Below, piece by piece: positions 4,973-48,934 of a stretch of 64,000 nt of DNA. The notes under the pieces were generated by a model. It saw only the letters and a list, made by a program, of their open reading frames with translations, had not been told where the DNA came from and did no database searches. A program made the position numbers and the translations under genes. The DNA is taken from IMG/VR virus record IMGVR_UViG_3300020460_000012; one strand, written 5' to 3'. The stretch is from a virus (taxonomy: Duplodnaviria; Caudoviricetes). The first letter of the stretch is position 1, and every line of letters begins with the position of its first letter.

Positions 4973-6511
4973 TTAGTGTAAAGCTACCCAAGCTGTTCCG
5001 TCATAACCTTGGAACTTAGCAGTACCTACGTGGAAAATTATCATACCTGCTTGAGGATTTGTTACAGCTGAATTTCTTGCCGCATCGTCTGCAAAGTTAG
5101 GAACTTTCACAGGACCTGTAAATGCCGCAGTTGAATCTATTGTACCAATGGATAGTACAACTTGTTGAGTACCGTCTGCCTTCGTATTATACATCTGTAT
5201 TGAAGCAGGTATATGTGTTGCTTGTGGAGCCGCATCTACTACAGATCTAATACCAGAAGCACCTTTGTATGCTGATCCGTTGTAACCAGCCATTCCGTAA
5301 CCACCTAACACATCACCTATTTGTACAGCAGTTGGAGCTGATTTTGTTCCTCTAGCTCTAAGTACTCCCATACTTGAACCAAAGCTACTATCATTTGCAT
5401 GTAGAATTGAAACAGGTATTGTACCTTCTGTAGCAGTGTCGTTATAAATTCTTAGTGTTTTACTTCCTACTGATGCTTGACTACTTCCAACTATTGTATT
5501 TCTTGGAAATTGTATTGTACCGTTAGCCGCCTCTGTTGAAATAATAAAGTTAGTACCAGTGCTATTTGTAACCAAGTACATAGTGTTAGGGTCAGTAAGT
5601 GTACCTAAATGTACATTCCTACCTTGTACACTTTCTGATTTTACTGGACCTGTTACATAACCTGATATACCATCAATCATAGTCGACGAATCATCTGCAA
5701 AAACTGAACCTTTAAAAGTACCATTATGGTCACCATTCGAAGTTCCGTTGAATGTGCCATTAAATGTAGCAGTTTTGCTGTCAACAATTCTAGTTGAATC
5801 TGTAGCAAATATATCACCTTGCACATCACCAAAAAACTGACCAGTGTCAGCTTCGAATATTTTTACAGTACCAGCCGCAACAGATGTGTAAATATCACCT
5901 TGGAAATTACCAATAAAATCTCCATTAAATCTTGCTAGATTTGGATCATATGCTACAGTTCCGTTATCGTGTTTTAATTTGAGTCCGTTTGCTGTCTTTT
6001 CGCTTGTATCAATAAGTGTGGTAATGGAATTAACTTTTAAATCACCGCCTACTACATCACCTACAATTGAGCTAGTAATATGGTCTACCAGTAAACTACT
6101 ATCTGAACCAACAATAGATAGCCTCATTTGGCTATCAACTAATGCACTAGCAACAAAATTTGTACCATCATGCAGTAAAATATCACCATTGTTTGGTTGC
6201 CCATCTGGATAAAGTATATCAGTGTGTTGGTTGGCGTTACCAAATGATACTGATTCAAGGTTTGTAGGTCTCCAGTCTGCTGTACCGCCGTTATATGCTA
6301 AAACCTGTCCATTTGAAACTGTACCAACTGTAACATCTGAAAGGCTATTAAGGTTGCCACCACCGGCACCACCTTGTACTATATTACCGCCAGCAGTAGT
6401 TCCATCACCTATGTAAAGTGCTTTTGTATCAGTGGTGTAGATAAGCTCACCCGCTTTAGGCGTGATAAGCTGACGTTCTGCGTTAGTACCTCGTCTTAGC
6501 CTTAATGCCAT
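4973..6511 (-). CDS. Tail fibre/structural protein with Mtd-like N-terminal domain
   Basis: N-terminal LRLRRGT..GELIYTTDTKALYIGDG motif, Gly/Thr/Asp-rich repeats and a C-terminal GYDGTAWVALH. Confidence 0.7.
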   Translation of the reverse strand: MALRLRRGTNAERQLITPKAGELIYTTDTKALYIGDGTTAGGNIVQGGAGGGNLNSLSDVTVGTVSNGQVLAYNGGTADWRPTNLESVSFGNANQHTDILYPDGQPNNGDILLHDGTNFVASALVDSQMRLSIVGSDSSLLVDHITSSIVGDVVGGDLKVNSITTLIDTSEKTANGLKLKHDNGTVAYDPNLARFNGDFIGNFQGDIYTSVAAGTVKIFEADTGQFFGDVQGDIFATDSTRIVDSKTATFNGTFNGTSNGDHNGTFKGSVFADDSSTMIDGISGYVTGPVKSESVQGRNVHLGTLTDPNTMYLVTNSTGTNFIISTEAANGTIQFPRNTIVGSSQASVGSKTLRIYNDTATEGTIPVSILHANDSSFGSSMGVLRARGTKSAPTAVQIGDVLGGYGMAGYNGSAYKGASGIRSVVDAAPQATHIPASIQMYNTKADGTQQVVLSIGTIDSTAAFTGPVKVPNFADDAARNSAVTNPQAGMIIFHVGTAKFQGYDGTAWVALH

Positions 6512-6544: not shown

Positions 6545-6552
6545 TATTTATA
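6545..6552 (-). promoter_or_regulatory. T4-like late promoter motif TATAAATA
   Basis: Exact TATAAATA upstream of a structural gene. Confidence 0.55.
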
Positions 6553-47016: not shown

Positions 47017-47044
47017 AATAGTGGGGGAGAAATCCCCCACTATT
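47017..47044. terminator. Bidirectional hairpin terminator
   Basis: Perfect 12-bp stem AATAGTGGGGGA-GAAA-TCCCCCACTATT between convergent genes. Confidence 0.85.
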
Positions 47045-47123
47045 AATCCGGAAATAGGTGTATCACTATCATAGCAAATACGATGTATGCTATACCTATA
47101 ATTATAGGACTTAATTCACCCAT
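47043..47123 (-). CDS. 26-aa membrane peptide (not in ORF track)
   Basis: MGELSPIIIGIAYIVFAMIVIHLFPD, starting 3 nt after the pqqA stop. Confidence 0.5.
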   Translation of the reverse strand: MGELSPIIIGIAYIVFAMIVIHLFPD

Positions 47124-47126
47124 CAC

Positions 47127-47198
47127 TTAGTTGCTCTTAGCATACATTGTGATTTCGAAGCCAAGTCTTATATTTTCATACGTTGGTTTTGTCCACAT
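47127..47198 (-). CDS. pqqA: Coenzyme PQQ precursor peptide (not in ORF track)
   Basis: AGGAG SD; [23 protein letters not shown] matches PqqA MWxKP..RxGFExTxY including the ExxxY pair. Confidence 0.92.
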
Positions 47199-47397
47199 AG
47201 TTTTTCTCCTGTGCAATTTTAAAGAGATCTTCGGCAGCACAATGTGGTGCAGACCTACAATCTCTTAGGTTTCTCTGGAATCTAAGAGGATCTATAAAGT
47301 TCATAGGTTGTGGATCATCGTAGTATTCCAAAAAATCTGTTGGGCCAGGTGTATGGCAACCGGCTAGTAAAAAACAAACTAATAAAAGTTTTTTCAT
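47176..47397 (-). CDS. Lipoprotein
   Basis: [14 protein letters not shown] lipobox. Confidence 0.75.
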
Positions 47398-47567
47398 CTA
47401 ATCATCCTTTGTTGTATTTCTCTATAATTCATGCTAACATTAGGCCTTAAACTCTGCATGAAGATATCTTGATTTCTCATAGTTTGCATAGACCAGTCTT
47501 GTGCCGACCTTTCTGGCAAATTACTACAGCCAGTTAATAAAATACATGTAAGTATTAGTCTTTTCAT
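47394..47567 (-). CDS. 57-aa lipoprotein (not in ORF track)
   Basis: MKRLILTCILLTGC lipobox; ATGA overlaps at both ends. Confidence 0.75.
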   Translation of the reverse strand: MKRLILTCILLTGCSNLPERSAQDWSMQTMRNQDIFMQSLRPNVSMNYREIQQRMIR

Positions 47568-48862
47568 TTTTCTGCTAACATCCTTTGAGCTTTTAGCTCA
47601 TTGTATCCTTCCTCATCTAAGTGTGTAATTGCAAGCCAGGCATGAGTCATTTCATCTCCTGTCCTACTACCACCCATTACCCACATGTCAGGATCAGGAT
47701 TGTTTGGGTTATTTGCGGTATTGTCATACCACTGCTTCAATATAATAACTGCACCTGCAGGTATTAATGGGGCTACATGTGGTTCAAATAAATGACTGTG
47801 ATGCCATGTTGCACTCCAATTAGATATTTGACTCACAGGTTCTGTACGACCAGTTTCTGGATAAAATATTTCTAAACTAGCCGCATTCATTCTCAAATGT
47901 CCATGTGGTTGAAAGCTATCTAAACGCACAGGATGATCAAAACTGTGGAAACCTTGTGTCATATGATAGCCATGTGGAGGAATAACGATATCGTCTTGAT
48001 TGCCTAGCCGATATAAACTTAAATCTTGTTTGTATTTCAGTTCTTGGCTTTCCTCTTCGCTGTATAACCAAAGTCCAATTTCCACCACGTTGTCTTTGAT
48101 AACTGTACCTGGAGCCATTGTTCCTAAACCGCCAGGAAACATATGTATGTCCCAACGAACTTGTGAATTTGCAGGAAGTGTTCTGCAAACTCCTTCCGGG
48201 ACAATCTCTCCCCACTTTCCCATAGCGTATTCCGTAAGCATACCTTCACGACCTCCATCAATAACTACATTAGAATTAGCATGATGAACTACAGACTTTG
48301 CATCGCCTCTAGGTTTTACTTGCACTGCTTTAATACATCTGTCTTCTGTGAGTCCTGTTGGTACTAGATGCTTGTGCCACAGATCGTTACCACTTGCTGG
48401 AATATCTATAGGAACGCTAGGAATTATTAGATTCGGTGGACCAAAGTCTCCAGCAAAATTCCATTGGTCTGGATCAGCAAGATTAGGAGGTTGTACGACT
48501 ATGTCGGTATCTCCGTATTGGGAGCCTGAGTCTACCCAAGCTACTATTGTATCTATTTCTTTTTGTGACAGTCGCCAATCACCTTGTAGGTCTTGTATGC
48601 CTATTCCGTGGTCGTAAGCATACGGAGGCATTTCTCTACTAGCTACTTTCATTTTAATTAATGGTGCCCAAGGACGAACTTGTTCGTAGCCCTCAAAACT
48701 CATAGGGCCTATACCGCCTGGTCTATGACATATTAAGCAATTATTATTGATTATCTTTGCTACATCATCTGTGTAAGTTTGTGCATGCACTCCAGATGTA
48801 AAATACATCAAGCCCATAAGCACAAGTAGGTCTATCGCCAATAAGGATTTGTTCGTTTTCAC
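47564..48862 (-). CDS. Secreted c-type heme / copper type II ascorbate-dependent monooxygenase-like protein
   Basis: Signal peptide, CLICH heme motif, VVHHAN, PHGH and GDEM Cu ligands of the PHM/DBH family. Confidence 0.8.
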   Translation of the reverse strand: MKTNKSLLAIDLLVLMGLMYFTSGVHAQTYTDDVAKIINNNCLICHRPGGIGPMSFEGYEQVRPWAPLIKMKVASREMPPYAYDHGIGIQDLQGDWRLSQKEIDTIVAWVDSGSQYGDTDIVVQPPNLADPDQWNFAGDFGPPNLIIPSVPIDIPASGNDLWHKHLVPTGLTEDRCIKAVQVKPRGDAKSVVHHANSNVVIDGGREGMLTEYAMGKWGEIVPEGVCRTLPANSQVRWDIHMFPGGLGTMAPGTVIKDNVVEIGLWLYSEEESQELKYKQDLSLYRLGNQDDIVIPPHGYHMTQGFHSFDHPVRLDSFQPHGHLRMNAASLEIFYPETGRTEPVSQISNWSATWHHSHLFEPHVAPLIPAGAVIILKQWYDNTANNPNNPDPDMWVMGGSRTGDEMTHAWLAITHLDEEGYNELKAQRMLAEK

Positions 48863-48905
48863 GCATGTTACCTCGCTATGTTAGGATATAAAAATATTTA
48901 TAATT

Positions 48906-48934
48906 AGTATATTATAAAATCAAGAGATTTGCAA
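48906..48934 (-). promoter_or_regulatory. Sigma70-like promoter
   Basis: TTGCAA-17-TATACT upstream of the monooxygenase. Confidence 0.5.

Follow-up and report, generated by a model that had tools for sequence, protein, structure and literature searches.

The window analysed here, a stretch of 64,000 nucleotides from the Caudoviricetes record IMGVR_UViG_3300020460_000012, belongs to a phage contig of roughly 335 kb (contigs of 335-339 kb). It carries a compact cassette in which the gene of a predicted exported dicopper monooxygenase with a c-type haem (E1) is followed by two lipoprotein genes (LP57 and LP73) and by pqqA, which encodes the precursor peptide of the cofactor pyrroloquinoline quinone (PQQ). 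This cassette is a host-derived auxiliary unit whose gene parts are firmly identified; as in auxiliary metabolic genes, a cellular origin is indicated by the tree, phage genes lie on both sides, and the contig is that of a phage. The upstream flank holds thyX and a phrog_7084 gene, the downstream flank the convergent phoH. Coordinates are positions in the window, all cassette genes lie on the minus strand, and L and G numbers are our labels for loci and genomes. The features are:

48934-48906, minus strand: sigma70-like candidate TTGCAA-17-TATACT, 9/12 match
48902-48895, minus strand: T4-late-type TATAAATA box, 33 nt before the E1 start codon
48862-47564, minus strand: E1, 432 aa, GTG start, GAGGT 7 nt upstream
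47567-47394, minus strand: LP57, lipoprotein of 57 aa, 4-nt ATGA overlap with E1, lipobox LLTGC
47397-47176, minus strand: LP73, lipoprotein of 73 aa, 4-nt ATGA overlap with LP57, lipobox LLAGC
47198-47127, minus strand: pqqA, 23 codons, AGGAG 7 nt upstream, start overlapping the LP73 tail by 23 nt
47126-47043, minus strand: hydrophobic open reading frame (ORF) of 27 codons, probably not a conserved gene
47044-47017, both strands: hairpin with a perfect 12-bp stem, end of the run

A preliminary description of this DNA had read the locus as a unit of five genes, namely a monooxygenase, two lipoproteins, pqqA and a transmembrane peptide, coupled by ATGA or other overlaps. The coupling was borne out at all three junctions and four of the genes stand, whereas the fifth is doubtful. 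As the genes are packed without gaps, co-transcription of E1, LP57, LP73 and pqqA is likely, and their order is kept in three relatives whose E1 is 98% identical. A 72-nt stretch that holds the 27-codon ORF is missing from these three close relatives, which speaks against the transmembrane peptide as a gene of the unit; in them the hairpin lies directly 3' of pqqA. Profile searches with Pfam, TIGRFAM and PHROG gave no family match for the ORF. We also considered it as a remnant of a 154-aa membrane protein of the relatives and found no significant likeness. The 154-aa protein (L002:8578-9042; likewise in L048, L082 and L088) has a membrane anchor at its C-terminus and a long helical region that is charged. 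It comes after pqqA or LP73 in many relatives and is lacking from the window.

The sigma70-like promoter that had been placed before E1 could not be upheld. Sites of the same 9/12 quality occur 20 times in 3.6 kb, compared with 12.7 +/- 3.9 expected in shuffles, so that the match is one at chance level, and the candidate is kept only by the nearest relatives. The position of the TATAAATA box, on the other hand, is conserved in seven divergent relatives with an E1 80-98% identical to that of the window, and going by this conserved position alone the box may be a T4-type late promoter. Two of the four TATAAATA boxes on the minus strand (6545-6552 and 48895-48902) lie 33-34 nt before start codons, those of a 512-aa gene at 6511 and of E1 at 48862, a spacing that fits T4-type late promoters.

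At its other end the unit is closed by the perfect hairpin that had been described, which has a dG of -21.7 kcal/mol and, compared with shuffles, a z of -5.9. Its tail on the operon strand reads UAUUUUCAUUC and lies partly within the stem; that on the phoH strand is rich in A and T but forms no clean U run. From its position and sequence the hairpin is a candidate bidirectional terminator common to the cassette and the convergent phoH. Its stem is kept in L172-L174 with the 4-nt loop inverted, the loop on the operon strand being UUUC in the window and GAAA in these relatives.

E1 is composed of a signal peptide, which as read from the sequence ends at VHA before QT, a CxxCH cytochrome c module and a dicopper monooxygenase of the PHM/DBH fold. 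In an alignment of 25 sequences reaching down to 28% identity, ten residues are invariant (C42, C45, H46, M78, H193, H194, H240, H320, H322 and M405). They comprise the haem site, C42xxC45H46 with the distal M78 in an MPP motif, and the ligands of both coppers, H193, H194 and H240 for CuH (HH...H) and H320, H322 and M405 for CuM (HxH...M). A profile of the alignment, compared with the PDB, matched DBH (1.3e-9) and PHM (4e-7) with the ligand motifs aligned. An AlphaFold2 model of E1 was obtained with a pLDDT of 85.5, and in a Foldseek search with it PHM and DBH took all of the 31 top places (E from 2e-12; TM score about 0.6 on the target). By sequence and model, E1 is thus a dicopper monooxygenase of the PHM/DBH type that is exported and has its own c-type haem, as the preliminary description had proposed.

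The structures of PHM (PDB 1PHM, 1SDW, 1OPM) and DBH (4ZEL) have the two-domain beta-sandwich in common with E1, with the same ligands in the same order, at a sequence identity of 12-14%. They differ from E1 in that E1 is bacterial or phage-borne and would be periplasmic, and in that it has a fused c-type haem where the animal enzymes need ascorbate. The E1 family appears to have swapped the ascorbate need of animal PHM and DBH for this built-in haem. We infer export, metal loading, an electron path through the haem and a substrate for E1. A PHM-style action on PqqA itself was considered and rejected, since PqqA has neither a signal peptide nor a C-terminal Gly and PQQ is synthesised in the cytoplasm while E1 is exported.

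The family is a very large one and numbers 9,732 clusters at 50% identity (E <= 0.001), in Pseudomonadota, Gemmatimonadota, Acidobacteriota and others. Its members are often fused to an AhpC/TSA-redoxin domain, and the databases name them merely 'cytochrome c domain-containing protein'. In the literature searched we found no paper on this haem-PHM family, either from phages or from bacteria.

Acquisition of E1 from a bacterium had first been suggested by its GC content. This argument holds in part: the GC of E1 (41.3%) does exceed the gene mean (35.3%) and ranks second among 64 genes (z = +2.1), but composition is weak evidence, with a z of +1.4 for GC at third codon positions (GC3). As proof of a recent transfer we rejected it, given the small GC3 shift and the spread of E1 to 74-90% identity within phages, which points to a long residence there. 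The acquisition itself is supported by phylogeny. Homologues of 64-77% identity come from Pseudohongiellaceae and other Pseudomonadales, those of 47-61% from Gemmatimonadota and Acidobacteriota. A maximum-likelihood tree places the 17 phage E1 sequences together in a single clade (support 100), which lies within the Pseudomonadales/Pseudohongiellaceae clade of the bacterial 'cytochrome c domain-containing protein' family; E1 is a member of this family. One E1-like gene, L112:8001-9329, lies inside the phage clade although its context is bacterial, with an E2-like gene, c1, an MFS transporter and a beta-lactamase-family gene; it may reflect a transfer back to bacteria or a chimeric contig of a metagenome-assembled genome (MAG).

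Many related phages carry a second enzyme, E2, a paralogue 27% identical to E1 with the same ligands, which comes after E1 in about 44 of 80 viral loci. In the tree phage E2 clusters with E2-like genes from the very bacterial loci that hold the E1 homologues, in which the arrangement is E2-like (-), c1 (+) and one to four E1-like genes (+). By this comparison phage E1 and E2 both derive from one type of bacterial locus. In bacteria as many as four copies of the family stand in tandem, and a single genome can hold as many as 11. The c1 gene adjoins E1-like genes in 49 of 77 bacterial loci (L094:4857-5801, L106:7578-8507 and 47 others) and encodes an exported protein of about 310 aa with an invariant C-terminal CC in a DQCCW motif. 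It had no match in Pfam or the PDB and is not found in the phage; in bacteria c1 probably acts as the partner of the monooxygenase. In phages E1 is found paired with E2 or with a phage-only lipoprotein instead.

The two lipoproteins, also part of the first description, were confirmed by their lipoboxes, the Cys of which is invariant in 12 LP73 homologues. LP73 has the motif N-x-R-x-C-R-x5-C-x-A-E-x-L-F, with N43, C47, R48 and C53 invariant, and LP57, similar to members of the LP73 family, is a paralogue that has lost both cysteines. Lipoproteins of this family (57-73 aa) were found in phages only, and the 77 bacterial loci contain no homologue. One of the LP73 type directly follows E1 in about 20 of the 80 viral loci. 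Prediction of a complex of E1 and LP73 gave a score of 0.00, with the partner's own fold uncertain, and thus speaks neither for nor against binding.

The last gene of the unit was correctly recognised as pqqA. It scores above both curated cut-offs, with 38.3 bits for PF08042 (cut-off 21.1; E 1.2e-9) and 42.7 bits for TIGR02107 (cut-off 20; E 3.3e-11), has the E-x3-Y cross-link pair as EITMY and is conserved in relatives. Like other viral pqqA genes it is an orphan copy that does not head a pqqBCDE operon. No match to PqqD, PQQ_2 or PF01011 was found in the whole 2.36-Mb assembly G000, so that only the precursor is supplied and host enzymes are needed.

According to the preliminary description, the linkage of pqqA with the monooxygenase would have to recur in other phages. 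For a survey, 80 loci were fetched from the 243 IMG/VR contigs with E1. The linkage recurs: pqqA is present in 14 of the 80 loci, always just after E2, and the linkage is also found in other close relatives. Counting the window, E1 or E2 and pqqA share one unit in 15 of 81 loci. In 65 of the 80 loci pqqA is absent, and five long contigs (83-230 kb) that lack it near E1 have none elsewhere on them either. Conversely, E1 was found in none of 50,697 phage records, so that the phages of methylotrophs which carry pqqA are without E1. The linkage is optional in both directions, each module being able to do without the other. From E1 to phoH the DNA varies between relatives and holds LP57-LP73-pqqA, or E2-pqqA and the 154-aa protein, or LP73 and the 154-aa protein, or other combinations.

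A functional link of the monooxygenase to quinoprotein oxidation had also been put forward, and bacterial homologues next to pqq or quinoprotein genes had been named as a way to examine it. We surveyed the neighbourhood of E1 homologues in the 77 bacterial loci, 8 kb either way. In none of the 77 did pqqA lie within this distance, so that the expected proximity to pqq genes failed to appear. A PQQ dehydrogenase (PF01011, E ~1e-168 for a representative) lies within 8 kb in 15 of the 77 loci and within 1.5 kb in eight. In L100 the order on one strand is E1-c1-x-NHL-PQQ dehydrogenase-c1-E1 and looks operon-like, and in L113, L148 and L149 a quinoprotein is one or two genes away. However, the five genomes with quinoprotein neighbours that were tested contain 11 to >80 quinoprotein genes each, and a background of one such gene per 55-300 kb predicts a neighbour in about 7-30% of windows of this size. 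At this density the count of 15 in 77 is no more than chance, and most E1 copies of G005, G074 and G163 are far from any quinoprotein. Once the density had been measured, gene neighbourhood was no longer significant as support for a coupling.

The comparison of whole genomes gave a different result. All ten E1-bearing bacterial genomes that were tested have PQQ dehydrogenase genes, 11 to >80 in number. Among 151 genomes from the order of G005, a full-length PQQ dehydrogenase is present in 10 of the 11 that carry an E1-family gene and in 40 of the 140 that do not (Fisher 7e-5, a test that ignores shared ancestry); for PqqC the figures are 4 of 11 and 21 of 140 (p = 0.09). Both pqqC and pqqA are present in each of the three genomes that have 11 close E1 copies, and the quinoprotein counts of these genomes are among the highest in the sample. 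A looser form of the proposed link is supported at the level of genomes, but not by gene neighbourhood or by the optional linkage in phages.

The host is likely to be one of those Pseudomonadales that hold quinoproteins and E1 copies in large numbers. As a model for it G005 serves best, a Pseudomonadales MAG labelled SAR86 NORP90, with 11 E1 copies, 21 PQQ dehydrogenases, pqqA and pqqC. The MAG G000, in which the phage contig (C57) was binned, was rejected as host: besides the missing PqqD, PQQ_2 and PF01011 matches it holds only a weak, stop-interrupted E1-like fragment (C58:30442-30948), and the presence of C57 in this bin (89% complete, 4.7% contaminated) is probably an artefact. The genomes behind L093, L094, L102 and L112, of the Pseudohongiellaceae type, have 13-36 PQQ dehydrogenase genes and neither pqqA nor pqqC; they may be auxotrophic for PQQ while relying heavily on quinoproteins.

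The explanation we lean towards is that an uncultured marine T4-like jumbo phage carries here an auxiliary cassette with two modules that serve the same host physiology and are not obligate partners. The cassette would probably be transcribed late and as one unit, and would act on the periplasm and on the cofactor supply of the host; the timing and the host are inferred. E1 would be exported by Sec, would have its haem attached by the cytochrome c maturation system of the host and would take up two coppers. Its haem domain would then accept single electrons from the pool of periplasmic c-type cytochromes and pass them to CuH, thus taking the role that ascorbate has for animal PHM and DBH, while CuM would activate O2 for the hydroxylation of a substrate. 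The LP73-type lipoprotein may be a phage-specific accessory that tethers E1 or helps in metal loading. Of the PQQ pathway the phage would supply only the PqqA peptide, which is consumed one-for-one in PQQ synthesis and would be converted by the host's PqqBCDE. In this way phage pqqA could keep the many PQQ dehydrogenases of the host loaded after the host's own expression fails. Quinoproteins would be a main source of reduced periplasmic cytochrome c in such cells. With the pool that reduces E1 mostly PQQ-fed in quinoprotein-rich hosts, an indirect link between E1 and the PQQ enzymes via periplasmic cytochrome c is likely.

Several observations weigh against this interpretation. E1 itself has no match to Pfam Cu2_monoox (PF01082/PF03712) at E <= 0.1, and its homologues reach 16-20 bits for a cut-off of 23; the cytochrome module also scores below the gathering thresholds (PF13442 19.5 versus 27 bits, PF00034 15.7 versus 21.3 bits). 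With no score at a Pfam threshold, the membership of E1 in the superfamily rests on profile and fold. The TATAAATA motif occurs four times on the minus strand of the window, compared with about eight expected from base composition. Shared ancestry may contribute to the enrichment among genomes. Lastly, the four genomes tested from the Pseudohongiellaceae-type clade nearest to phage E1 have neither pqqA nor pqqC; phage pqqA would be useless there, and the assignment of the host is uncertain to that extent.

A tighter coupling, as in the preliminary description, in which host PQQ dehydrogenases feed the E1 haem directly or via their own cytochrome and the phage provides the oxygenase as well as the cofactor precursor for its electron donor, is plausible but in our judgement doubtful. 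Such direct wiring would account for the shared transcription unit of E1 or E2 with pqqA, for the quinoprotein richness of all ten E1-bearing genomes together with the enrichment among carriers, and for pqqC and pqqA in the three genomes with 11 close E1 copies; the gene order in L100 and the close quinoproteins in L113, L148 and L149 would also suit it. It is contradicted by the chance-level number of nearby quinoproteins and the distant E1 copies of G005, G074 and G163, as well as by the lack of pqqA beside bacterial E1 and the frequency with which phages carry one module only. A special form of coupling would be a redox-neutral periplasmic cycle, in which E1 hydroxylates a C-H bond to an alcohol, a quinoprotein oxidises it and two electrons return via the c-type haem; this we consider unlikely. 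For methanotrophs it has been proposed that particulate methane monooxygenase is coupled to the PQQ methanol dehydrogenase. The likeness is that there a copper monooxygenase would draw its two electrons, via a c-type cytochrome, from the oxidation of its own alcohol product by a quinoprotein. The enzymes, however, belong to unrelated families, membrane-bound PmoABC in one case and a soluble PHM fold in the other, and for E1 the coupling is a hypothesis. Dedicated wiring or a closed cycle of hydroxylase and dehydrogenase falls, in our estimate, between doubtful and unlikely.

The two modules might also have nothing to do with each other, E1 with its lipoproteins and pqqA having landed independently in a variable island between thyX and phoH; compact phage genomes would then be the sole reason for a common transcript. 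The variability of the stretch from E1 to phoH and the common occurrence of each module without the other would follow directly from this. On the other side, pqqA stands directly after E1 or E2 in several E1 sub-clades with differing PqqA, and bacteria of the E1 family are rich in quinoproteins, for which a shared physiological setting is a better fit than chance; we hold independent arrival to be rather unlikely. Very improbable, finally, is a role of E1 and the lipoproteins in modifying an envelope component or in blocking superinfection. Phage-specific lipoproteins with no homologue in the 77 bacterial loci and a late-type promoter box would be in keeping with it, and LP57 weakly matches the Cor exclusion lipoprotein in PHROG (E = 0.011), though over the signal-peptide region only. 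The bacterial tandem arrays and high copy numbers of E1, moreover, suit catabolic enzymes diversified by substrate.

The new elements of this work are the lack of support for a coupling from gene neighbourhood and its support from co-occurrence in genomes, the origin of E1 and E2 from a common locus, and a candidate host group. With 243 IMG/VR contigs, the E1 family is a common cargo of abundant ocean phages, and its linkage with pqqA is a testable lead to its physiological setting, in which dissolved organic matter is oxidised in a periplasm rich in quinoproteins. Should the coupling be true, phages alter the oxidation of organic carbon by marine heterotrophs during infection; should it be false, the locus still shows plainly how two independent modules of host origin come to be stacked in one variable island of a phage. 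A redox-neutral cycle, should it exist, would assign a function to an enzyme family that is very large and unstudied. Jumbo phages would then boost both arms of the cycle, by the oxygenase and by the PQQ precursor, and so would intervene in marine organic-matter oxidation in a new way.

Viral pqqA as such was already known. It was published in 2020 from Lake Baikal for Methylophilaceae phages (VP_266; Coutinho et al., PMC7678222) and proposed as a booster of quinoprotein metabolism (PMC7678222). Our search of the 50,697 phage records with the PqqA peptide gave 12 matches, nine of them in isolate phages of Methylophilales (Melnitz, Venkman, MEP301/401/402 and P19250A), mostly at places where nothing is annotated. 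As in the window, VP_266 and the OM43 phages Melnitz and Venkman have only a precursor of 23-24 codons with the E-x3-Y pair and need PqqBCDE of the host. The PqqA of the window, unlike that of the methylotroph phages, resembles Pseudomonadales PqqA: the peptide of a related phage is identical to that of G005 at 22 of 23 positions, compared with only 14-15 of 22-23 for the methylotroph-phage type. The setting differs as well, for pqqA of the window belongs to the E1 operon and overlaps the gene upstream, whereas that of the methylotroph phages stands alone with its own terminator. An intact stand-alone pqqA was read directly in both Melnitz and Venkman. In Melnitz-1 (MZ577095.1) the unannotated gene (L009:2995-3069) has an AAGGAGG site, lies just before a tRNA-Leu and is opposite a hypothetical coding sequence annotated on the other strand. 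The unannotated gene of Venkman (MT375522.1; L010:2501-2572) is intergenic, on the strand opposite to its neighbours, and has a hairpin of its own.

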